From: Rhina ancylostomus
Taxonomy: Eukaryota
Assembly (NCBI GenBank): GCA_030265395.1
Contig: JARFYF010000017.1
Span: forward strand, 30,599,684 to 30,663,683
DNA: 64,000 nt
Direction of reading: 5' to 3'
The notes beneath the pieces are model-generated. The model worked only from the letters and a program-made list of their open reading frames with translations. It had not been told where the DNA came from and searched no databases. Below are positions 3,391 through 36,110 of this stretch, in pieces (within the stretch, counting starts at the first letter, position 1; the number at the start of each line of letters is the position of its first letter). The position numbers and the translations under genes were made by a program.

Positions 3391-4156
3391 ATTCTAGCAA
3401 TTCTGCATAAAATATGGGCAGCACAGTGAACATCTTGGTAAAGCATGGTGTTTTATCTTCCAGTAAAACAATCCCTCCCAATACATAAAAAGACTAGTTT
3501 ATTTTCCTGTAAACCCATACCTCCTGTCACACTACGATAAAAATAACAAATCCTGGCTGCCAAGATGGCAGGCGGTGACAGTAACAGGGGAAAAAAAAGT
3601 GATAGCAAACATAAGATGGTAACTCAAAGTGGCAAACATAGATAGAGAAAGCTTTACTCACATGCACATAAACAATTCAAAAATAAAGTGGTACCCACAA
3701 AACATTCTGCAACTGCAATACAATCTTAGAATTTTAATGATTATAGAAACAGATTTTTGACATCACTATTTTCAATACCAGAAAGCTAAAACAGCATAAC
3801 AACATTTAACATGTACTGACAACTTCCAATTTTTTCACGATGTAAACAGTGCAACTTTCAGCATAAATACAAAAGAAAAAATAAAACAAGATGCAAAACA
3901 GTGCTTGAAATATACGGTATCAAAAAGTTTCAAAAGTGAACTTTTATTAGTTAAAGCACTAACTATGGACCATGGTTTCAATTCTGGCTGAGAAATTAGT
4001 AAAACAAACATAAAAACATCATCATCCAGCTCATTGGCAAAAAGACAGAATTGTATTTATATAATACCTTCCACATCTACTTCAGGACAATCTAAGGCAA
4101 TCAGAGATAAGGAAGTACTAATGTAGTGTAGACACAGTTGTAAGAAGTGCAGCAAT

Positions 4157-4290
4157 CATAGAAAATGTATGACACAAAAGAGGCAGTTGCCCCGTCATGT
4201 CTGCGCCAGTCCAGCCTAATGTCATTTTCCTGGATTTGGTCCATGGAACTGCAGATCCTCTTAAAGCATATATCTAAATACTTTTAAATT
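4157..4290 (-). mobile_element. Short CR1 3'-end fragment
   Basis: catagaaaatgtatgacacaaaagaggc..cccgtcatgtctgcgccag resembles the reverse CR1 tail seen elsewhere in the window. Confidence 0.6.
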
Positions 4291-4536
4291 AGTCCACATT
4301 AAGATTCCATAAAAAGTTATGTGGTAACGGCTTGGTAATCTTGTTAGTCATGAGATAAATATTGGTGGGATACTGGGGATGACTCCCCTGCTCTTCAAAA
4401 TAGTCCTTTTGCATCCACCCAAGAAAGAAGACAGGGTTTTCATTTAAAATTGCATCCAAAAATAGGTATTCCCTGGGTCCTGCCACTGGTTCAAGTCCCA
4501 CTGTCTACTTTTTTGTGCTCAACCTCTGAGAGAGGA

Positions 4537-4662
4537 GACATAAGAGAATGCAAATATTGGAATCTGGAGCAAAAACACATTGCTGGAGGAACTCAGGGTG
4601 TCCATTTCCCTCCACAGATGCTGCCTGACCTGCTGAGTTCATCCAGCAGTTATTTTTTTGTG
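4537..4662. mobile_element. PLE-terminus-derived fold-back mini-element (internally deleted)
   Basis: Arms ttgctggaggaactcag / ctgagttcatccagcag; shares ggaatctggagcaa and tccacagatgctgcctgacc with the copies at 11.5 and 30.7 kb. Confidence 0.75.
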
Positions 4663-6884
4663 CTTTTGTGGGGGGGGGGGGGGCTGGAGAGAGTTGGACC
4701 AATGGCAACAGTGTTACCAACTGAGCCACAGCTGACACAGTATATATGATCACTTATAGAATTCATTCAATGTTACATTGGTCAATGAAAGTTCAATGGT
4801 TACTTTCCATACAACAAATGTGCTGATATTAAAAAATCAACTCCAAGTGCCTCTGCAACCAAGTTTTTGAACCAACCCACCCACCATAACATCACATCTA
4901 AAATCAAAGCTAAGAAGAAAGGCTACCTGCTCTGCTATTTCTATGTTCTCCACTTCTCAAGGATCCTCAGCCCCTTTGCCCATTCTCACCTGCTTTAATG
5001 GACAGAATGAAGTAAATTTTCGAAAAGTGATTTGTCACCTGCTTTTGGACACAAAATTTTCTTTCCATTTATTTCAAAGGAAATGAAAGTCTTGTAGATT
5101 CTGTAACNNNNNNNNNNTGGTCAATATGCTCTGTTACTTCAACACGCAACAGTCGGTGAGAATTGTGCCATTCATTGCTGGTCTAGCTCACTAATGCTTG
5201 TTTCACAATATGCACTTTTCCCTTGAAAGAAGCACAATGCCGACACAAACATCATTCATTCAGCCCACTGCAGAACTGTCATGTTAGGTAGCTGTCATGC
5301 ACAGCTGAGCAGAGCATTGGACATGCAGTAAGACTGCAAAATACGAAACAGAACAAAATCTCAAAATAAAACATCATGGAACAAAAGACTATTTCCAAAA
5401 CCACCAGCCCATGTGATAGGATGAAATTTTCTATATATTTGTTTGAGTTGAGGCAATGACACCAGAAACATTTTTATTTTAAAGGAACCAAGATGTTTCC
5501 ACATGCATGGATCTGGAAAATTGTAGTTATAGCACGCTGAAGAATCAGAACAAAATGCTAGTTACTTTTAGTAATAATGATTCTTTATTTACACTATTTA
5601 GGAATATATTCATGGTAGTACCACATATATGATACAGCTGGTGGCAAGTCAACTTTACTGATTCGCTTGGGTTGTTCTGATACTCAACTGTAAATCCAGG
5701 TTGTTAGTACATTTACCGTCAGAACTTCAGCCATTGCACCAAAGCTTTGACATTTTCTTTTTATCAGTGATGTGCTGAAAGAGTGCATGGATTTTTTTTT
5801 CAAACTGTGAGAATGACCTTCCATATCAGAGGCTTTTTTTAAAAAAGGAGTTAGATCAGCACTATTATTATTGCATTCTATTGCTTTTTTGACTTTCCTC
5901 TCTGTCAATCTTCTTCCCTCCTTTCCTGGAGGCACTGAAACCTTCAAATGAATGATTCCAAAGACATTATCCATTACCTTGCCAAAAGAGAAACTATTCG
6001 AGTTGCTAGACAGTCAAGTATTTGTTCCTATTTCCTGAAAGGTCGAGTAATGATGACTTCATGCAGGAACTAGCTTGGAAGCTGCTCTGAAGTTGACAGC
6101 ATGGGGAAGATCACATATGGCCCACATTTTGCAGATGTAATGACAGCAAAACTATTAGCATTCACTGTCATTATACTGTGAAACTGACAGAAACTTTGGG
6201 ATTTCTTGCACGTGCGTTGTTTAACACAGAACTCCCAAAGCTGCTATCAGCAATTCAACACTCTTCCAGAGTTTTGCAACCTTCTCTACTGTAATGAAGA
6301 AAGGAATTGTGGAAACTTTTTTGGTATTCACAAGCTAATTTTTGCTGTAAAATTCCTTAAAAATATTAAGCATGAGGTGGAAAGTGAATTTTCTGTGGTG
6401 TACTGAGCCCTTATTATTGCTCAGCAACCTCTTTGGCACAAAAAAATCTAATATATGTGTGTGGATTTTAATTGACCAAAGTAAACATTTCAAAATAAAA
6501 ACTTTGTAATATAAATTCAGTTGTTATTGTTCAGAAAGACTATTTCTACATTTCAGATTCTTCCTGATTTTTTTATATATGTGTTCCAGTCTTTTTCTTG
6601 CATACTGCACAATGTAATCTGTCAGAATTCAAGGTGACTGGCTGCTTAGCCAACTTAATGTTATCAAGAATACTGCATGTTGGGGATCACTCGTAGATCA
6701 TATTGGCAATAGCGGTTTTAAAGGGATAAGGCTTTAGGTTACAGTTTTTGACTAAAATTTTTGCTACAGATTCAGCAAAATACATATCTTATCATGAATG
6801 CTCAAGTTACATTAACATTATGCCCAAATTACATATTGATGCATTAACAGTTTGCTATAACATTAGGTCTGTAATCAGATCAAG

Positions 6885-7775
6885 GTAATCATACAGGATG
6901 GATTTTCAGTTCATCGTGTCCATGCTGATGACAAAAGAGCTTCTTTAGGTGAATCCTACTTCCCAGCTCCCTGCCTACAGCCCTGCAAGTTGCAGGACAT
7001 CAAGAGTTCACCTGGATACTTTTTAAACGTGGTGAGGGTTTTTGCTTCCAGCACGCTTTCAGGCAGTGGGTTTCATACTACCAACGTCCTTGGGGGAATC
7101 TTTTTTCCCTCAAGTCCACTCTAATCCTTCTACCAATTAACTCAAATATATGCCTCTAGTTATTGAGCATCTGTAAAGCAAATTGGTCTTTCCTATTCAG
7201 CCTGAAGAGTCGCATAATTTCTCAATCTCAATTAAATCTCCTCTTAGCCTCCAAATAAAACAATCTAAGACGAGACAATATCTCCTCATCACTAAAATTC
7301 TTCAGTACTCACAACCTATCTCAAATCTGCTCTGCGCCTCTCCAGAGTGACCACATTCTACTTGTGATGTGGTGACCAGAACTATACATATTATTTGACC
7401 TGTGGGCGAACTAATGCTTTGTATAATTCCAGCATGACTTCCCTGCTCTTACATTCCAAGTCTCTGGCTTCTAACCATCTTATTCACTTGTCCTGCAGTC
7501 TTCAATGATCTATGAGACCTCCCTGTTCCCATTCACTTTTCAGTATCTTGTTATTTATTGTGCATGTTCTTTACTTGTTTACTTTTTCCCAAATGTTTAT
7601 CTCTCACATCACCAGCTTGAATTCTATTTGCCAATTTTTTGCCCACCTGACTGATCCACTGATGTCTCCCTGCAGCCACATTTTCTTCCTCACTATCAAT
7701 TATAACGCAAATTTTAATATCACCTGGAAACCTTTTAATCATGGTTCCAACATTTAACTTCGGATCCAAAGCCAA
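6885..7775 (-). mobile_element. CR1 LINE fragment (RT C-terminal half to 3' end)
   Basis: KRFPGDIKICVIIDSEEEN.. resembles CR1 KFADDTKIGGVVDSEED; decayed downstream CR1 motifs and tail. Confidence 0.8.
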
Positions 7776-8039
7776 GTCCACATCACAAAAGACAACTACG
7801 TCAAATGACATGAACTCATTGCTTATTTATGTTCTTGCACTGTCAAGATTAATGGCTCCTTCCTTCAAGGCATTTCTCGAAATTATCTTGAGTTAGATTT
7901 ATGCAGTCCATTTAATGTAGCACAACAACCCATGCTACTTCACAGATGGGACCAAAAATGATTTAGGAAGGATGACCAAAATATTTAGTCAAGATTTTAC
8001 AAGAGATTTAAATTCCAGAGCCTACTTNNNNNNNNNNTG

Positions 8040-8860
8040 TACAGTGTGGCAAAAGCTATGGAAAATGGACGGAAGGCAGAATTGGAAGAATGGGGAGCTC
8101 TGGAGGGTTGTGGGGGTGGATAAGGCAACTGGGAATGCAACAGACCAAGGCCACAAAGTGATTTAAGTGTAAGGGTGTCAATTTTAAACAGTAAGCTTTG
8201 GTAGACAGCCGTGTCTATGTAGTGGGAAATGCTACAGGATAGCAAAATGAGCAACAGAGTGTGGATGAAACTATGTTTACATGACCAGGGAGAATGAGAG
8301 GCATTGATGAAGGAAAGACATGTTTGATAGTTTCAGCTAGAGGAAACTCTAGGTCAAAAAAAAGGTAGATGCTTGACTGTCAAAGAACATGACAATACAA
8401 CAATAAATTCGACATTGACATTGTAGTAGTGTAGAAGCTGAGGGAATAGAACTGGGTGTTGTCACCAATATGTGAAAGCTGAAGCCATGGTTTCTAATGT
8501 TATTGTTGAGAGCAGTGCTCTCAAGAGAAAAAGGGACTGAGAACAAATCTTTGGGGAACACTGGAACTAAAGGCTTGGGGGCGATGGCAGAAGTGGCTGC
8601 CGTGAGATCTTCCCAAAATCAATTTAGTAACATTGGGATCAAGCCCATCAAGCTGGACAAGAGTGAAAAGGTGTTAGCGGATGGTGGAATCAAAATGGAG
8701 ATAGTGGGCCACTATCACAGACACAGCGGGTGTCATTTATGAAATTTAGAACAGCTTCAGTGCTGTAATGAGAGTAGAACTTGACATGACATTCATACAG
8801 AAAACTATGAGGAAAATGGGCAAGGAGCTAGGTGGGGGGGGATCAACATGGTAACTACAT
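8040..8860 (-). mobile_element. L2 LINE remnant (RT region)
   Basis: Minus strand gttccccaaagatttgttctcagtccc (VPQxxVLSP) and LNNNIRNHGFSFHI (L2 LGxIIRxHGxSFHxYADD). Confidence 0.72.
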
Positions 8861-11487
8861 ACGGAGTCAACAGTGCTGCTAGTTTGAATAGGAAATAATA
8901 ATTCTTTGCAATTATTCAATCTTAAAAAGCTATTGGTATTGAAGTACAAGGGACCCATGTTGCGAGGGAGGTTTGCATTCCCAGAAAACCATCCATATCA
9001 CAATTTTTCTCAACGCAAAGCCACGTCCAAGTCATCTGCACGTGTCAAGAAACACAAGTTTATAAAAAAAATTGTATTTACTTATTTACTATTCCCCGCA
9101 TAAGTTTAGATTGAATCAACTTTGCATATTACAGAGAAAATAAAAGGATATATCCCCACCACTCAATTTAAATCAATGGAAAACAAGTTGTCCTCGCATT
9201 TGGTTTTTACACTCTTAGCAAGTCTGATTTTCCCCTATTCAATGGGTTCAGATAGTCTAGACACAGGAACAGAAACATCTTTACAATATTTAACTTGTAG
9301 AAATATCTTTGTGCAGTCAATACTGTGAAATATAACCCTTGAAATAACTTATGTTTATTCTGAAAATTAAAAACCATTCGATGGTTCCCTAAAATATCCT
9401 AGTTGTAATTCATGATGCTTCTCAGAAGAACTAAAAATTTATTTTGGTATTTGATATAAATGCTTATGCCAAAATTGAAGGTAGTGTATTGACATGTGGT
9501 GTATTTTTTTCTAACTATATAATAATCTAAATTTTGAGTTTATAGGTTTTGCCAATTTTCAGAAACATCCGTAATTGTTCTCCAAGATCAAAGAGAGTTA
9601 GGGTGTTTTAAAATTTTAAGCTATGAATTTAAAGTCATTTCAAACCCACTAAGACAATACTACTGAAATAAACACTGTTCAGACACACTTAAGATCCACT
9701 TACTGCTTGGACATACGGGCCTCAATACAGTCAAGTGATAATCTATGATGTTATCCTGTTTACATATTGCCAATCTTTTTTAGCATCAGTATTTAAAGTA
9801 TTCAAACTGCCAAATAGCTTTTCTGGGCCAAGAGAGAGCTCATGCAGTTGAATAAAAGCTTCAGGAAACAGAAGTCTTTCAGTACAAAGATTTGGCTGGT
9901 TCAGTCTTATTTTGTATTTTTGATTTTCGCTACCCAAGAGCCAATATATTTCAGAAGAAAAAGAAAACACATAAGCACAATGACTAATGAAACTATTTGG
10001 GACATAGTGAATTAAAACTGCAGTTGATAGTTTTGTTGACAAACTCTTCTAATGGTATCTTATGAATGTTGGTATTTATTCTGGATAACATGCATCCAGT
10101 CTCTTTGAAGCTTCCTGGTATCTGAAGGGCTGGATGTAGACACTCCAGTATTCCATTGTTTAACCTTATAAATATTGTCTGTTGTTATGCATTTTTCATA
10201 ACCAACTATAATAATCAATTGTTCAATTCTGAAGACATGTTAGAAATGTATATAAAACTGATTTTTCATTGCTTGCTTTATTATTTGTTTAATATATAGC
10301 CATATAACAGCGCATAAATTATCCAAACTGAAATTACATTTTATTATGTTGCTTTTCTTACTAATTTTTGTATTTTACTTGTGTTGGTAACAAGATAAAT
10401 ATGATGATGAATACTAAAACAGATGTATGCTCAAGATTATATTCTGGTTTTATCATTGCAAAAATAATGCAGAACTCATTTTCCAAACTTACATAATATA
10501 ATTATTTTGAAATATAAAAGTAGTTTTCTTTTGAGTTTTTGGAATATCTTTTTTTAGCCTGTAGTTTGAAGCATGGCCTAAACGACAGCTGTGAAGGCCT
10601 CTCCCCAGCTCAGCCCTGCAGGAGCTCTAATGTACTTCATTCAGGGGCTGGGAGCTGCTTTTAATCTATCAGCATGACTCCGCAGCTGCTGTAAGCTAGC
10701 TGAAAATGGTCTGCACTTGGGGCTTAACTTTTGTAACCCTTTATGTACAACACATGTTCAAAAATATATCAAAACAGCAAAAAGCTTTGGAAAAATACTT
10801 CAGGATACTGTGTAAACAAATAAAGATGGACAACAATAAAGAAAATTGCAATCTTTTTAATACCCCTACATTTTATCAGATGAATTGTTATGAACTGCCT
10901 AGAAACTCACCTATATCATAACTGCTGATTACGAACAAATAATAGATGTGTGTGCAGTCCTCAGTTGTTCTCCAGCCAGTACGTACATGAGCACACAGTC
11001 ATGAATGTACATGCAAGCCCAAAAACAACTGAGACCACACACAGGGTTGTAATTTGTCCCTGGCCATCTGCTGTACTGTATAATGCACACAGGTTATTCC
11101 CTCTCTCTTCATTTCTGCTTGTGAAAAATGACTTGTGTCACGTCAATGTAAGGTGATTGTACAGGTGAAATAAGCACTGCCCACAAACAATAATAGGGAA
11201 GACTGGTTGGCACACTGTCTTTCAGTGGTAGGATTAAATTGAGTTCAAGTCCAGTGCAGAATCGAAGTGATGAATGGCTCCTCCCATTCAAAGATTTTAT
11301 GGTGAAATGCAATTGGAATGTCTCCACCTGTAATTTTATGGGTTGACAGCACCAAGTCAGTCCTAAACTGGCACATAAAGGTTGCACAACAAAGGGCACA
11401 GCAGCAGAATTTTTATTTGAATGGTGCATCACTAGAGAAGACAAGAGAATCTACCATACACTGGCCAATATTTTTCCTAAGCTATGG

Positions 11488-11672
11488 AGACACAAAAGAC
11501 TGCAAATGCTGGAATCTGGAGCAAAAAAAAAGAGCTGTTGGAGGAACTCAGTGGGTTAGGCAGCATCTGGACTGATGAAGGGTCACAAACTGAAATGATG
11601 ACTGTCCATTTCCCTCCACAGATGCTGCCTGACCCATTGAGTTCTGCCATTAGCTTGTTTTTTTTTTGCTGG
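11488..11672. mobile_element. PLE-terminus-derived fold-back mini-element retaining a hammerhead-like core
   Basis: Arms gaactcagtgggttaggcagcatctg / cagatgctgcctgacccattgagttc; central CTGATGA-agggtcacaaact-GAAA at 11572-11595. Confidence 0.8.
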
Positions 11673-11845
11673 ACCTAGGAGATCTTGATGCAGACACTAG
11701 ATGCTTAGAGAGGAAGAATGTTAAATTTACAACAGCAACAACTTCCTCAAAATGGAAGGAGAGCAAATGCTTTGAATATAATGAAGTTCTACAATCACAT
11801 TTTCATATAATGAATTACTCTGGCATTCCTGCATCCTAAACTTGA

Positions 11846-17851: not shown

Positions 17852-18430
17852 GTCAAGGATGTTGGAAAACTGAAATAAAAACAGAAACTGCTGGAAATAC
17901 TTAGCAAGCAGACAACATCTGTGGAGAGAGAAACAGTGTTAACATTTCAGGTCAATGACCTTTCATCAAACCTGAGATTAAGTTAGAGGTAAATAGTTTT
18001 AAATTGCAGAGAAAGGGATAGCGGAGAAGGTGGGGATGTAAAGGAGAGAACAAACTGCCAAGCCCTTGATAGGATGGAAAGCGAAACAGATTGAACAACC
18101 AAAAAGGATGATGGTACAATGTAACAAAAATGCATAGCCATTATCAAAAATTACTGAAGGAATTTACAAAGGATATTGTAAATCTGGAATAAAACTATTG
18201 GAAAGCACACCATCTGAAACTGCTGAACTGAACATTAAGTACCTCATCTGAAAATGAGGTGTTGTTCTTCAAGCTTTTGTTGAAAGACTATAGGAGGCCA
18301 AGGACAGAAAGATGGGAGTTTAAGTGAGACAGAATTAAAGTGACAGGCAATGGGAATCTTGTGGTCATGCTAGCAGATTGAACAGAGGTGTTATGCAAAG
18401 CTGTCACCCAATCTGCATTTGATCTCCATT
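17852..18430 (-). mobile_element. Penelope-like element 3' fragment: GIY-YIG C-terminus and terminal repeat
   Basis: Minus translation GEIKCRLGDSFA*HLCSIC..PIACHFNS..KLEEQHLIFR matches PLE GETKRRLGDRFAEH..PVAxHFNS..KLEEQHLIFRLG. Confidence 0.85.
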
Positions 18431-18840
18431 GCTCTCTGTGGTACATGTCCACAGAAATCAAGAAACATCTACTTAGATCCCTACTATTACAACTTTAAAC
18501 CAAATGTTAAGACCACCTGGTGACTGCTTTATTTCTGATTTTGCCCTTCTGCAGAAAATTGCTCATGTCCCACACGATTTTACAGAAAATGCAAGGAATT
18601 CAGCAAGGCAAAACATTGCAAATGTGTGATACCACTCTATGGCATCAAGTGTTTATGCTCTAATGTACCTCTTCTTTTAAAAGTAAAGAAGTTTAATAGG
18701 CTAACAGTAAAATATTTTCCTCAGGATAACTATCACATACAATTAAAAAGGAAGCTATTGATTACAGAACACTTCTATTTTTATTTAAGCATTTGAGTTC
18801 AATTACAAACTCTAGTTTTGAAGATTCTGTTGTAATATAT

Positions 18841-18908
18841 GGATTGTAGAAGTATCCTAAGCTGTATTACAAGTCATGTCAATACAGCTTAGGATACTTC
18901 TGCAATCC
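18841..18908. repeat. Inverted repeat / hairpin with 28-bp arms and a 12-nt loop
   Basis: ggattgtagaagtatcctaagctgtatt-acaagtcatgtc-aatacagcttaggatacttctgcaatcc; 27/28 Watson-Crick pairs, the remaining one a U-G wobble on the plus strand. Confidence 0.95.
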
Positions 18909-21900
18909 TTAACTCTAAATACCTTTCAAGTTAATAAAGTAATTGTACAAGGCCTGTTTACAAACTGTGCAACAGAACCATCATGGAGGCTATGGAAATC
19001 CTCAAAAGATTTCTGTTGGAAATTTCTAACAATTAAGATAAATATTGACCATTATTTCAGTCCCTAATAATGTGGGATGCAAGCAAGAATTCCACTGCTA
19101 AAACTATTTTAAATGTCCGTGAGAAAAGTAATTTATTATCTGAAGTTTAGACTGTATTTCTTAGTAGCCCTGACATGTCAGAGGTTTGAAGTGCAAAGAA
19201 TTTCAAATCCATTAAGCCTAAGTAAAAGTACCACAAATAAACTGTTCATCACCTTTGTATTCCTTTATCTGAATGTCGCTACATGATAGTTTGAGGAAAT
19301 ACAAAATCATTTATCCTTCTTAAGTGAATTAAATGCTTTTTAAATGTACGCTATGAGTTAAATTTCTGTAACCATGTACTTGAATTATAGGTGGTAAAGC
19401 AATATATCTGTTAAGTTTGTATGTTAGGTTCTGCTTCCAAATAATTATGAGCAATTTTGTTGCATGTTATTCTCCATAATTAATAGCTCAGTATGAAGTT
19501 TGTTTAATATCATAATTTTAACCACAGGGTTGGAAGGTAGTCCTTTCCATTCAGTGCAACTTTAACACAATTCCACAACACATACAGTAGAAGGAAGAAG
19601 CAGCAGGACTTTAGGATATGAGACATTTTCTATAGTAATAAAAAGTATGTGCAAGATTTATATTGCTAGAGCAAAAATTAAGTTATATGTGAGCTCAGTC
19701 TCAACAGTAAAAGTAACAGAAACTTAATACACTGTCAGAAAATGTTTTCTGACAAAATCCTTGCAGATGTGCTGTAATGCCCATAGCTCATTCTGTTTTT
19801 AGTGCTGCACTCCAGCAGGCTCAGTTCTGATCCATTTTCTTTCTCTTAGGAAGACACTCTGCCGCAACCAGACATTTATCATTAGTCTCTGGTATAATTT
19901 TGCTCTGATTTTTCCACTTGCATTAAAAAAAGTAATTTTTGTTTTAATTACCCTCTTCAGTAGAATGTTGATGAAGTAACGGGGTCCCGCGCTTTGGGGG
20001 CCTTACCTCATTCCTGTGCTTTAATGAGTATAATCCTTAAGGAGCTTTAAAACAACCAATGCTGGGCTCAGGCCTGCAGCTGCCAAATACATTATACACT
20101 CTGACAAAAGGCACGAGTTTGATAACCGTTACCAGAATCCATCTTTGTCAGATACATTAAAAAATGACTTAACTCTTTTACTTCGAAGAATTTCAGGAAT
20201 TTCCAACATTTTCATTGGAANNNNNNNNNNATGGAGGGGTTGATTTACAACAGTTTCATAGTGAAGGGTTAAAGAAATACTAAGAAAACCAAACAACAAC
20301 CAGGAAAAAACCTCTGATCCCCAAGACAGGGTATATAGTACCATCTGCACATTTTTTATTTGAGTAATTATCAGATAATTAAGTGCATGATTTGTGAGAG
20401 AGCCAAAGCATACCATTAAAATATTTAATGCTTGTAGTTCTGAGACTGAAAACTACATTAGCTCACGTGCAATCAACATTCTATCCAAAAAAGGCATTCC
20501 ATATTGAAAAATCAAGAGTTTTAAAACAGTGATGTCAAGGAAGTGCAAAACAACTGAATTAATAGAAACATACAGTGCAAGATCTTCATAGGGCAACTGG
20601 AAAGGTTGCAGTCAACTCAGTAATTGAAGTAACTTTTCAATCTACATTTTAATTTCATTTAGATATTTAAAAGTTAAATTGTCTTTTCAAAAAACATAAT
20701 TACATCAAAGGAAAAGAGTGGTTAGAAAGTGCTTTGCATTTGTCCTCTTAAAAAAATACTAGCATGTGCTTATTTGGCCAACCAGGAATGACAATGCCTT
20801 ATACTGCATCTTTAAAAGGTAACAATAAAAATGTAACCTTACTGCTCCAGCTTCTACAATATGCTCTGCTTCTCTGTAGCCAATACTTTTGCTTGAAAGT
20901 TTTAAACTTCTTTTCCAGTGCATTGCAGAGCTAATCAATTACTCAAGTACTAACAGAGGCCTAAATCCCACCCAATGCGCAATGGAAATGATGTGAGGCT
21001 TGTAATCGGACCTCTAACATCTCCTGCTCTGCCAAAACAAGGCCTACAAACACATGTAGACAATCACGTATCAAGAGAACAAAGAGCTAAGAAATCTGTA
21101 CTTTAAGCTGTATAATTTTACAAAATGTACTTGCAGAAATCCCACTGTTCAGAGAAATCTTACGATATATGAAACTCAGTGGTTCTCTTTGTAAAGCATT
21201 TATAAACAATTAAAACTCATTCGTGCATATTTAATTTAATCTGCTCTGGAACTGCAGGAGATTTAGACTGCAACCAATTTTAATAGAAGATTATGAATAA
21301 ACAAGCATCAAAATTTACGGAAGAGACGAAATAATACTTAAATACATCAACTGTTAAAAATTAGGGTGAAATTGGATAAATAGGGTGTGGTTATTTTTCT
21401 CAACCTGTACCTTTCTATTTTCTGAGTCATATATAACATTCCACATGTGGAATATGCCTTTCACTGTAACTTCTTTGTCAGTGTCTAATATTCCAGTAGG
21501 TGATGCTGCGTTTAGCTAGTTTCAATGTTATGTGTGTTACATTGTACAATGGCTGCTGTTTCATAATACATTTATTACCCTGTGATTCCACAAATGAGGC
21601 ACTGTGCTCTCTTAAAGAAATTTATGGCGACTTCTTCTCATTCAACTTTTCCCACCTCACCTCAATACCTCGTATGTCTATTGCCTCCAAATAAATGGTT
21701 TAATCAAGATAATATGATTAAATTTTTAAGTAGTTTATCTTTTCTGCCTTTTAATGGCTTCTGTAAATATTTCTTGTTTCAAAAATGGGTTGTGACTTGA
21801 TATAAGATTATCTAGTTCAGGTGCGCTGGTCTTAACCAATTCAGCTGCTATGCTCCCAGTTTTCTGACTCCAGATTCAGGTAAATATGTTGAAAGACTAA

Positions 21901-27359: not shown

Positions 27360-27897
27360 CAAAGATTTGGTTCATACATCCCTAGGTTTGTCTGTTTTTC
27401 CATTGCACCATTTACGTTATACTGTCTTTCCTCATTCTTCCTAACAAAAGGGATCATTTCACTGGGTTCAATTCCATGATGATATGACTGCCCNNNNNNN
27501 NNNNNNNNNNNNNNNNNNNNNNNNNNNNNNNNNNNNNNNNNNNNNNNNNNNNNNNNNNNNNNNNNNNNNNNNNNNNNNNNNNNNNNNNNNNNNNNNNNNN
27601 NNNNNNNNNNNNNNNNNNNNNNNNNNNNNNNNNNNNNNNNNNNNNNNNNNNNNNNNNNNNNNNNNNNNNNNNNNNNNNNNNNNNNNNNNNNNNNNNNNNN
27701 NNNNNNNNNNNNNNNNNNNNNNNNNNNNNNNNNNNNNNNNNNNNNNAGATGGACTAGTGAAATGGGCAGTCATATCATCATGGAATTGAACCCAGTGAAA
27801 TGATCCCTTTTGTTAGGAAGAATGAGGAAAGACAGTATAATGTAAATGGTGCAATGGAAAAACAGACAAACCTAGGGATGTATGAACCAAATCTTTG
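27360..27897. repeat. 134-bp inverted repeat flanking a 253-N gap
   Basis: 27360-27493 is the reverse complement of 27764-27897 with one visible mismatch. Confidence 0.93.
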
Positions 27898-30621: not shown

Positions 30622-30810
30622 TTCAAGAGACTGCAGATACTGGAATCTGGAGCAACAAATAAAATGCTAGAGGAACTCAGTGCGTCAGGCAGCATCTGTA
30701 GACGGAAATGGGCAGTCAATGCTTTAGATTGAGACCTGAAACTTTGACTGTCCATTTCCCTCCACAGATGCTGCCTGACCCACTGAGTTCCTCCGACATT
30801 TTGTTTGTTG
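30622..30810. mobile_element. PLE-terminus-derived fold-back mini-element with arms of about 67 bp
   Basis: caacaaataaaatgctagaggaactcagtgcgtcaggcagcatctgtagacggaaatgggcagtcaa pairs with ttgactgtccatttccctccacagatgctgcctgacccactgagttcctccgacattttgtttgttg. Confidence 0.85.
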
Positions 30811-31814
30811 TGCAATCTTAAGCCTTCTTGGTGAAGGACTAGCAACTCATTGACTTGAATGGTGATTCTCAGCCCTGTAGAATGTGGGAGTAGTATGTAG
30901 GTTCAGTAACTTTATTTTCCTTATTTTACTTTATTTGTTTTTGTTTAATGATTTGAAGTAACCTTTATAGTCAGACATTAAAATCTGTGACAGGTCGACT
31001 GGAGACAAAGCTCCATCTCCTGCCTTGCCTCCTGGCAGGATGATCGAGGGGCAAGGCCTCAGAAGTAAACCATCCTAGACTGGCTACACCTTGCTGATGC
31101 CTTCCAGGTACAGAAGGTCATGTCCTTTGGTCCTACTCAGCTGTCCCAGGTAAGTGCAAAACAAAACCACCATGATTTAGCCCAATGTAACATTTAATGT
31201 AATATATCTTTCAACTAACCCATGTAGCATTGCTCTGTGATGCAACATCAACAATTTAAATTATATTGATTAATATCACAGTGTATAAAGATAAATTGGT
31301 AATCAATAAATCCAGAGTGCAATGCACACAAGCTTCATAGAGAGTTTACAAGGGCATCAAGATGATTCAGTTAAACAACAAAAATAGGCAGCAAATTCCC
31401 TTTCCACAGTACACCAATACCAGATCTACAATCAGTAAAAAAAACATAGAAACAAGGACATTAATGAACATTTACACTGCTGCACCAGAGTTGCAGCTTC
31501 CCCCCCCCCAACTACTATCCCTTTTTGACATTGTTGTCAATATCCAGCATTTGTGGCTGCAGGCTCTTATTGGTCCTGGTAAATACCAAGAAGCTTCAAG
31601 AAGAATAAAATGTTTAAATGCTTTTACAGATGCTGCAGCTCTCAGATTTTGTGACCTCTCTCATAGAGCAGTTTCAAATAACAATGGTTTATAAATAAAG
31701 GCAAGTTGGAGTCCTTAAATAAAATGTTATTTTATTTCAAAGAACAGAATTTTTAAGTTGGTCAGTTGCAATTTATTCCTGACCATTTACAACAAATCCA
31801 ACTTGGCATTTTCC

Positions 31815-32115: not shown

Positions 32116-32245
32116 ACGCACTTGTTTGCCAACAATGTATTTTGATTTAGTTTGCAAAGATTTTATGGCCATTAAATTTCACACCCTTGGCAAATACTCA
32201 GCTTTCAGATGTAAAGGAATGGAGGTGCAGGGTGTTTTCTCTGTA

Positions 32246-32737
32246 GCACAAACAAGGTGCTGGAGGAACTCTGCTGGCCAGGCAGCATCTGTGGAGAGAA
32301 ATGGACAGTCAATGTTCTGGGTGGAGACCCTGAATCTGGACTGAAAGATCAAGGGGAGGTAAATAGTATCAAGATGTGAAGGGGTGGAGCAAGAGCTGGC
32401 AAGCAACAGGTGTTAGGCAGATGGAGGAGGAAAAGAGTGGAAATAGTGACAGAGGCTAGGAGGTGATAGGTGGAGGTAACGAAGGGCTGAAGATGATGGA
32501 ATTTGATCGGTAAGGGAGGTGGGAAGGGCAGATGGGAACAGAGGAAGGAGGGGATTGAGTGTAAGTGATGGGCAGATGGAGTGGTGGAGGGAAGCAAAGA
32601 AAAAGTGTATTGGCAGGCTGGGATAAGCATTGGAGGACCTGAGTAGATCAGGAGAGAGAAAAGGGATAAAGGAGGAGCAGTTTGCCTGAAATTGGAGAAT
32701 TCAATGTTCATGCCATCAGGTTGTACACAACCTTAGT
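32246..32737 (-). mobile_element. Penelope-like element 3' end
   Basis: Minus translation QPDGMNIEFSNFR (PLE ORF end), pyrimidine-rich 3' region and terminal repeat shared with the mini-elements. Confidence 0.85.
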
Positions 32738-34317: not shown

Positions 34318-34470
34318 TAAAACAGAAAATACTTGAAATATTCAGCAGGTCAAGCAGCATTTGTGGAAAAAAAAAGTTAACATTTCAAGCCAATGATCAG
34401 AGCACTTCAGATCAGTGAGCTGAAATATTAGCTGCTTCTTTCTCCACAGGTGCTGCCTGATCTCCTTAGC
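34318..34470. mobile_element. Older PLE-terminus fold-back mini-element
   Basis: aggtcaagcagcatttgtgga / tccacaggtgctgcctgatct arms; same terminus type as 17880 and 34980. Confidence 0.7.
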
Positions 34471-34939: not shown

Positions 34940-36110
34940 AAAGTAGAAAAGCTGCAGATGTTGGAAATCAGAAATAGAAACAGGAAATGTTCAAAATACT
35001 CAAAATACTCAGCAGGTCATGTAGCATATGCAGGGAAAGAAAACAGCTAACGTTTCAGGTCACCACCTTTCATCAAAACTGAGAAAACTCAGAAATCAAA
35101 CATGTTGTAAGTTGCAAAGAAGCAGAAGGAATGTTGAGAACAAAGGGAATGTCTGTGATTCAGTGGAGACCAAGAGAGACTGAATGACACAATTGGTAGT
35201 GGTGTGCGTTGAGAGAGGATGGTGAAGATTTGTTAATCACAGCGGATCAACCTGGAGAAGGTGTAAATAGAATTCAACAAATGAAAACAGAGGAGGATAG
35301 AGAAAAGAAACCAATGCCGAAACAGTAATATGTGCAGAGGAGAAGTTAAACTGCAAATGCTAGAAATCTGAAATAAATACAGAGAATGCTCTTACCACTC
35401 AGCAGGTCAAGCAGCATGAGTGGTATTGGTATTTCAGATGAACTAGCCTGTGCTGATATGAACTGGAAAATTTAGTTATCTGAAATTGTTGAATTCAATG
35501 TTAAGTCCACAGGGCTCTAATCTGCCAAGCTCTCAATTTCCACCCCATAAACTCCACCAGCTTCAAAATGATCCCACGACTAGATCACCCTTCTACCTTC
35601 AACATTCAATAGGGACCACTTCCTTTATGCTGTTCTGGTTCAATCTTCCACCTTCACTGACATATATTCCTTTTCTCAAAGCCAGTTTTTCTGCCTTTTC
35701 ATCTTTTCCCTCTCCCACCACCCAGGTACCCAAACACTCATTCCAGGTGAAACAGCAATTCACTTGCATCTCTTATAATTTAGTGCTGTGCATTCAGTGC
35801 ATATGAACATGGTCTTCTCTGCACCAAGCACAGACTGGGTTACTGCTTTTAGAATACCTCTGTTCAGTCTGCAGGGGTAACCCTGAACTTCCATTTGCCT
35901 GTCATTTTAATTCTCCATCCTGCTCCTACTCTGACCTCTCCAGCTTTAGCCTCTTAAACAAACAAAACCCAATGCATTGCACCTTCTGACTAAACATGTT
36001 TCAGCCCTCAGGACTCAACAATAAATTCAACATGTTCAGGACTCTTTCTCTCTGAACAAATGCTTCTTGAGCTGCTGCTTGCTTCCAGCATTTCCTACTT
36101 TTATTTTGCA
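34940..36110. mobile_element. Penelope-like element with an inverted partial copy (minus 3' end joined to a plus GIY-YIG domain)
   Basis: Minus LGRLEPCGLNIEFNNFR* near 35480-35530. Plus QVPKHSFQVKQQFTCISYNLVLCIQC..HRLGYCF..PELPFACHFNSPS..SGLNNKFNMF at about 35720-36040. Terminal repeats at both ends. Confidence 0.82.

Follow-up and report, generated by a model that had tools for sequence, protein, structure and literature searches.

A decayed minimal hammerhead motif in a Penelope-like terminal repeat, and related subfamilies with altered ribozyme cores

Minimal hammerhead ribozymes of Penelope-like elements (PLEs) are inactive as monomers, and their dimers or trimers are weakly active (Cervera and de la Pena 2014, PMC4209133). 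The ribozyme of the anole PLE cleaved only with the element's own protein, and the changes C3G or G8C abolished cleavage; insertion in vitro was unaffected by ribozyme mutants, making the ribozyme dispensable in that setting (Frangieh et al. 2024, PMC11167929). In a type III hammerhead every single change in the CUGA-turn region gave low activity (PMC9901934), the natural variant described at the 3-8 pair is the compensated U3-A8 (PMC4209133; PMC3088659), and some naturally occurring core variants are weakly but genuinely active (PMC3088659). Naiad PLEs thrive without a hammerhead motif, and the role of PLE hammerheads has been called unclear (Craig et al. 2021, PMC8557442). Non-LTR retrozymes and PLEs have been reported in one cartilaginous fish (bioRxiv 10.64898/2026.07.22.740005); the sections of PMC4209133 consulted for this work name no cartilaginous fish.

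In this report we analyse a motif of this class on the minus strand of a 64-kb stretch of Rhina ancylostomus DNA (the window, meaning that whole stretch), together with the genomic family to which it belongs and an intact relative. The reading that we consider very probable is that the motif lies in the PLE terminal repeat (pLTR) of an old 5'-truncated copy and is likely inactive and neutrally decaying.

The motif and its surroundings

Read from 35080 down to 35045, the motif matches the layout given in an earlier note on this DNA base for base. Its parts are as follows; the first line rests on the sequence reading and a descriptor, the others on the sequence, and hammerhead position numbers follow standard usage.

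35045..35080, minus strand: type I minimal hammerhead motif, decayed
35080-35077, minus strand: 5' strand of helix I
35076-35070, minus strand: CUGANGA-type box with U at position 3
35069, minus strand: extra A between positions 9 and 10.1
35068-35065 with 35060-35057, minus strand: helix II, 4 bp
35056-35053, minus strand: GAAA
35052-35051, minus strand: palindromic CG
35050-35049, minus strand: UU
35048-35045, minus strand: 3' strand of helix I, with one U.G wobble

The predicted cut falls between 35049 and 35048, at a GUU triplet, and a palindromic ACGU replaces helix III. Position 3 has changed from C to U with G8 unchanged, leaving neither C3-G8 nor U3-A8. Helix II is closed by A10.1-U11.1, the typical G10.1-C11.1 being absent, and its fifth pair is lost; the 4-bp helix II of the earlier note thus describes this copy but not the family, in which the helix has 5 bp and a 3-nt loop. 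A full type I minimal descriptor (at most one box mismatch, helices I and II of at least 4 bp, and GAAA-NN'-UH) matched the window once, at 35045..35080, and 40 dinucleotide shuffles (2.54 Mb) not at all; in 696 kb of unselected genome it matched three times, one match being apparently unrelated to the family. As the sole match to the full descriptor this core is the best preserved in the window, as had been proposed; the same note counted four recognisable cores, of which a looser scan finds three clear ones (11572 plus, 17969 minus and 35076 minus). An Rfam search of the window with E up to 10 gave 13 matches, none of them to a hammerhead family. Because of the C3-to-U change, the missing fifth pair of helix II and the lack of an intact neighbour, the hammerhead of this copy is likely inactive and decaying neutrally, with residual activity possible through the U.G wobble that C3-to-U leaves. 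Our literature searches found no measurement of C3-to-U alone in a PLE hammerhead.

The surroundings of the motif, and two further termini, are given below, with the basis of each assignment in brackets. Subfamily labels (A, B, D, U4A and A9C) were coined in this analysis, A being the type of the window copy; C2762 is the intact relative described in the next section.

34947..35082, minus strand: family-A PLE terminal repeat holding the motif (profile search; 110/125 aligned bases equal to the family majority)
35083..35265, minus strand: 3' UTR of the same PLE copy (68-74% identity to other genomic copies)
35349-35424, minus strand: second, more decayed terminus (profile search)
35479-35526, minus strand: end of a PLE ORF (protein comparison)
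35691..36043, plus strand: broken GIY-YIG end of a PLE ORF, inverted to the motif (comparison with the C2762 frame)
36045..36114, plus strand: remnant of a terminus that closes the inverted arm, without a recognised ribozyme core (profile search)
17857..17974, minus strand: second family-A terminus (profile search)
18237-18426: GIY-YIG remnant upstream of the 17857..17974 terminus (comparison with the C2762 frame)
32240-32346, minus strand: terminus of the U4A subfamily (subfamily assignment)

Since the 3' UTR continues past the motif to 35265, this copy did not end at the ribozyme. The piece at 35349..35526 (minus) is either a partial tandem or a separate insertion. Two opposed arms result, 34947-35526 (minus) and 35691-36114 (plus); the broken GIY-YIG end in the latter matches the intact C2762 frame with 50% amino acid identity across 120 aa (E 8e-24), and the GIY-YIG fragments of the window gave no match in Pfam. 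By its layout, the arrangement around the motif fits the pattern of partial tandems and inverted copies described for PLE insertions. With profile HMMs built from other genomic copies the window yields 13 termini of the family, the cores of several being worn; a reversed control yields 0. The terminus at 17857..17974 likewise carries C3-to-U and has a full 5-bp helix II, a broken helix I and no palindromic CpG. Further opposed pairs of termini lie at 11498-11683, 30629-30815 and 34318-34470; these fold-back pairs cause weak Rfam matches to microRNA precursors, and at 11566-11580 the arm junction itself appears to form a canonical box, with helix I broken. No host exon was recognised, none of the 138 open frames of at least 68 aa in the window having reached a Pfam cut-off, and no contig spans 34895-35136 among the listed pieces of the species' own run.

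Several features lie beside this account. Directly downstream of the ribozyme, at 35015-35044 (minus) and in all subfamilies, a pyrimidine tract ending in CAG is followed by ATG; tract and CAG resemble a splice acceptor, and PLEs are known to retain introns in the pLTR. At 27360-27897 a 134-nt inverted repeat of 99% identity surrounds a run of N and is likely an assembly artefact, and a 31-bp hairpin with 94% complementarity at 18838-18911 falls outside the PLE terminus family.

The genomic family and its parent element

The family was sampled in 80 stretches of 10 kb, taken at fixed steps from 11 large contigs and holding 696,031 non-N bases. Of the 163 termini in them, 89 belong to type A and 74 to type B; reversed controls gave 0. 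The density of 234 per Mb extrapolates to about 4.5e5 termini in the 2.2-Gb genome if the sample is representative and the N fraction similar. Exact searches of the genome with four patterns returned 28, 300, 238 and 75 matches, and 0 for each reversed pattern. For a sample independent of the ribozyme, searches were anchored on the part downstream of it only; 157 matches were obtained, 132 with usable upstream sequence (77 A and 55 B), of which 70 family-A and 51 family-B copies could be aligned through the motif. Thus 70/77 and 51/55 of these copies extend through the core, and most 5' ends are therefore not at the cut site. Judged by eye, family similarity is lost within a few bases upstream of the box in about 20 of 28 loci (L031-L058) and about half of 26 others (L338-L363), both sets having been chosen by pattern; this truncation hot spot lies on the side opposite the cut site and is present in the A9C lineage too.

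In the 70 unbiased family-A copies each fixed core position of CUGANGA, GAAA and UH is canonical in the majority. The earlier note had made an active consensus depend on the core boxes and on helix I-II pairing, and in the majority sequence of the family the core is complete and both helices are present. At position 3, 55 of 69 copies have C, 9 have T and 5 have another base; across the genome, 27 of the 28 family copies that are otherwise perfect have C. The C3-to-U change is therefore private decay of the window copy, in agreement with the earlier suggestion that it is peculiar to this copy. A U3 subfamily was considered, about half of 30 loci picked by BLAST having U3, but the query itself had U3, and the pattern and downstream-anchored counts refute it. 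The extra A between positions 9 and 10.1 is present in 56/69 family-A copies.

Individual copies are much worn. Identity to the family is 0.80 in the core against 0.82 downstream for family A, and 0.77 against 0.80 for family B, the downstream values being biased upward because that part anchored the search; on these figures inserted copies decay without constraint, their cores as fast as their flanks. The full core together with H17 is kept by 8/70 family-A and 3/51 family-B copies, and a strict descriptor is passed by 1 copy in 696 kb. The high copy number claimed for the ribozyme accordingly holds for the terminus but not for working ribozymes, the two abundant sister subfamilies U4A and A9C having non-canonical cores as well. 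All 11 fixed core bases are kept by 11/70 family-A copies, against 5.9 expected under independence; age spread would explain this excess, and slight constraint is also possible. The ACGU palindrome is part of all subfamily patterns, and CpG decay has removed it from most old copies: only 51% and 38% of family-A copies retain the CpG at 15.2/16.2.

The proposal that the motif belongs to a PLE terminal repeat is borne out by an unplaced contig, C2762 (locus L279, C2762:1-3287), which holds one 3,210-bp PLE unit with an intact frame and an intact motif. Its order is GIY-YIG end, 3' UTR, pLTR terminus with the intact motif, and a 738-aa open frame with RVT_1. The GIY-YIG match (Pfam E 7.8e-5) lies above the curated cut-off and the RVT_1 match (E 4.6e-5) below it. 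The contig ends overlap by 77 bp, and the frame read across the overlap has 925 aa comprising RT, a CX4CxxC linker (residue 791) and GIY-YIG; the RT frame starts some 110 bases downstream of it, counted from the motif. Two elasmobranchs supply the named proteins closest to the element (69%, 66% and 74%), and its protein homologues carry RT and, in part, GIY-YIG domains. A PDB sequence search with the intact ORF gave no match at E up to 0.1. In the unbiased sample a GIY-YIG lies upstream, on the same strand, of 8/70 family-A termini. Apparent open frames of 998-2276 aa were set aside as mostly runs of N. Because the C2762 terminus stands between a GIY-YIG end and an RT frame, the terminus of the motif belongs to a PLE, and we assign the motif family on this order to an EN+ PLE. 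Neptune is the likely clade, the CX2-5CxxC linker being common to Neptune and Nematis.

The view that C2762 is the master from which the old copies stem was rejected. Against the majority of the 9 nearest fetched copies its identity is 78%, and 69 of the 99 differences fall at third codon positions, which marks it as a sister lineage. Its CpG observed/expected ratio is 0.67, that of the window 0.19; among 40 scored of 1000 candidates no relative exceeds 73%. Among 22 listed runs, 14, under 11 organism labels, hold at least half of its sampled words. Two of the four runs compared, X1 and X5, each hold one contig (1,989 and 1,916 bases, respectively) that shows 7 differences from C2762, an identity of about 99.6% over 1.9-2.0 kb. 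Runs X1, X3 and X7 contain no piece longer than about 55 bases of the window DNA at 33-39 kb at 80% and almost no old termini; run X10 matches window DNA exactly at a depth of 6-9. The C2762 element would thus occur in organisms without the window DNA, and horizontal transfer and contamination of the assembly both fit. No RNA run was listed with the C2762 stretch, and our literature searches found no earlier report of the near-identity of this element across organisms.

Subfamilies with altered cores and selection on masters

A B-type pattern with positions 4 and 9 left free gave the 238 exact matches mentioned above. By hand count, the first 100 comprise 45 canonical cores, 27 U4A, 21 A9C, 4 U4C, 1 U4G and 2 double variants. 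The A9-to-C change is present in 26/26 exact matches with its diagnostic flank (loci L172, L179, L183 and L338-L363). It is concentrated in the flank class in the unbiased sample (10/12 against 7/61, p 2e-6) and among ORF-selected loci (10/12 against 7/65), and the 26-30 termini with the A9C flank in 696 kb extrapolate to roughly 7-8e4 genome-wide. The U4-to-A change (loci L174, L184 and L187) occurs in 14/49 unbiased B-type copies, or roughly 4e4 genome-wide, and carries a flank marker in 32/34 cases against 15/60 canonical ones (p 4e-11; hand counts on the first 100 of 230 listed matches). Its association with the flank class was not significant in the unbiased sample (4/9 against 10/62, p 0.07) or among ORF-selected loci (1/4 against 10/74, p 0.46). 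In a tree of the 96 downstream bases of 65 loci the subfamilies cluster roughly, with U4A a grade; the subfamily assignments therefore rest on linkage at diagnostic sites instead. From this linkage we conclude firmly that A9C is an inherited master state, and less firmly that U4A is one. Both changes are predicted to cripple the core. In locus L176, at about 1460-1640, about five copies of the bare A9C ribozyme unit of about 35 nt stand head to tail. Our searches of the literature found neither U4A or A9C subfamilies nor PLE hammerhead families of cartilaginous fish; Luense et al. 2017, on PLE hammerhead dimers, or the supplements of the 2026 preprint may contain them.

Across subfamilies the first pair of helix I is U-A, C-G or U.G, that of helix II is A-U, G.U or G-C, and the free position N7 is U, A, C or G; pair 10.1-11.1 is A-U or G.U in the subfamily of the window copy and G-C in families B and D and in C2762. 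The 121 unbiased copies show covariation between 2.1 and 1.1 (p 5e-5) and between 10.1 and 11.1 (p 7e-5), and none between position 17 and 1.1 (p 0.5); these counts are confounded by subfamily structure and reflect few independent events. A second count agrees but is circular, since its loci were picked by patterns that assume the pairing. Because helices I and II covary between subfamilies, and because subfamily changes fall where the hammerhead tolerates them, the ribozyme in the masters is likely under selection.

How cleavage in a master may proceed can be outlined from published PLE hammerheads, from which we infer a ribozyme that is weak, slow, and dependent on a dimer and on protein. 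A master pLTR transcript would present two motifs, as tandem units or on two RNAs, whose ACGU palindromes would pair with each other to form helix III; each RNA would then be cut after GUH, probably slowly and with the help of the element's own protein. A monomer RNA would form a long, inactive hairpin with the cleavage triplet buried in it. Such a hairpin, pairing the box with the triplet, is what monomer folding predicts, with weak z-scores (-0.05 to -1.84), cofolding prediction being a method that does not model the hammerhead core. Reverse transcription starting just downstream of the ribozyme may scatter short 3'-end copies, often as inverted pairs, and the inserted copies would mutate unconstrained, C3-to-U here removing the C3-G8 pair without a compensating A8.

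Two alternatives concern the motif in the window itself. Chance agreement with a short motif, which the Rfam search without a hammerhead match and the one descriptor match of three in the genome sample that looks like chance might suggest, is refuted by the family data: the shuffles held no descriptor match, and the exact genome matches of every pattern stand against none for its reverse, leaving this explanation a negligible probability. Co-option of the window copy by the host, as a working or regulatory ribozyme, is highly improbable. This copy does have the best-preserved core of the 13 termini and keeps the CpG palindrome that most copies have lost, but it also has a core change, a missing helix II pair and a wobble in helix I; at 88% identity to the family majority it stays inside the range of a sample whose median is 80% and whose maximum is 91%, some of several hundred thousand copies will be equally well kept by chance, and the search for a host exon described above recognised none.

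The other two alternatives concern the family, and we regard each as a minority view. On one, which we hold to be rather unlikely, the motif is retained chiefly for its structure, as a hairpin that binds the PLE protein or terminates reverse transcription, while retrotransposition can dispense with self-cleavage. The wide spread of the A9C and U4A subfamilies argues for it, as do the positions of their changes: 4 and 9 are unpaired in the predicted monomer hairpin, U4A leaves predicted fold and energy unchanged, and A9C keeps the hairpin at nearly the same energy. The indifference of anole PLE insertion in vitro to ribozyme mutants (PMC11167929), the success of Naiad (PMC8557442) and the many 5' ends that run through the core point the same way. 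Against this, C3, G5, A6, G8 and GAAA are fixed in all five subfamily majorities though C3 and GAAA are unpaired in the predicted hairpin; the N7=A of subfamily D breaks a predicted hairpin pair and suits the ribozyme; and the link between U4A and the flank class is the non-significant one noted above. It is about equally doubtful that the variant cores still get cut, A9C by a shift of register (the C bulged after G8 and the next A serving as A9) or the variant RNAs in trans by canonical partners. The substrate half of the variants (ACGU palindrome, GUC triplet and helix I) matches family B, weakly active natural core variants are on record (PMC3088659), and the B and A9C majorities differ at 3/36 positions in the motif against 10/55 in the next 55 bases, a weak hint of continued constraint; this contrast is, however, slight and results in part from the patterns by which the loci were selected, and in the published alignment the extra base follows A9 (PMC4209133 supplement). 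A9C termini follow a same-strand GIY-YIG in 7/17 ORF-selected and 2/26 unbiased cases, which would make the A9C lineage a PLE with its own 3' end, but 0/27 of the best-preserved A9C loci reach back to a GIY-YIG.

Significance and comparison with known systems

On the evidence of its sequence the window copy is ordinary, a decayed representative of a class already known. The U4A and A9C subfamilies indicate that a canonical core is not needed for wide spread; should the variant cores be dead, a retrotransposon of a vertebrate would have multiplied to tens of thousands of copies with no functional ribozyme. Five related subfamilies differing at single core positions, together with an intact element, make cleavage directly comparable with transposition success. 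A bolder interpretation, to which we give somewhat less than even credence, is that two PLE lineages (U4A and A9C) spread with crippled cores but an unchanged substrate half, self-cleavage in cis being dispensable for retrotransposition in vivo or cleavage being supplied in trans by canonical partners, and that the intact relative of 3.2 kb, whose ribozyme is perfect, has recently passed between distant hosts. Were this so, the genome would hold a natural experiment on the purpose of the Penelope hammerhead, with C2762 as a live element for testing.

Among described systems, animal non-LTR retrozymes (bioRxiv 10.64898/2026.07.22.740005) share type I hammerheads derived from PLE pLTRs. They are tandem repeats without an ORF, whereas the window copy is a dispersed 3' fragment, continuous with a PLE 3' UTR and beside GIY-YIG remnants; a tandem of bare units was seen at L176 only. 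Neptune-clade EN+ PLEs (PMC8557442) are similar in their single ORF with RT, CX2-5CxxC linker and C-terminal GIY-YIG, in the partial tandems that form pLTRs, in inverted 5'-truncated copies and in the pLTR hammerhead. The Poseidon element PAc of Anolis carolinensis (PMC11167929) also has its hammerhead at the junction of pLTR and ORF and copies that end a short way downstream of the hammerhead; it differs in having no zinc linker and an ORF that starts inside the ribozyme, whereas the C2762 frame starts downstream of it.

The closest likeness is to the minimal hammerheads of metazoan PLEs (PMC4209133), with which the motif shares type I topology, a 4-bp helix I, the extra base between A9 and 10.1, a palindromic 15.2-16.2 without helix III and location in the pLTR, and the family shares the presence of several consensus families per genome, mostly as solitary truncated copies, and pairs on opposite strands. 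The family described here departs from them in its 5-bp helix II and, in the subfamily of the window copy, in A-U or G.U instead of G10.1-C11.1. Its roughly 4.5e5 termini are far above the 4,000-9,000 descriptor hits of coelacanth and Xenopus, termini and hits not being counted like for like. Finally, the core variant recorded in those elements is the compensated U3-A8, whereas here whole subfamilies carry an uncompensated U4A or A9C.
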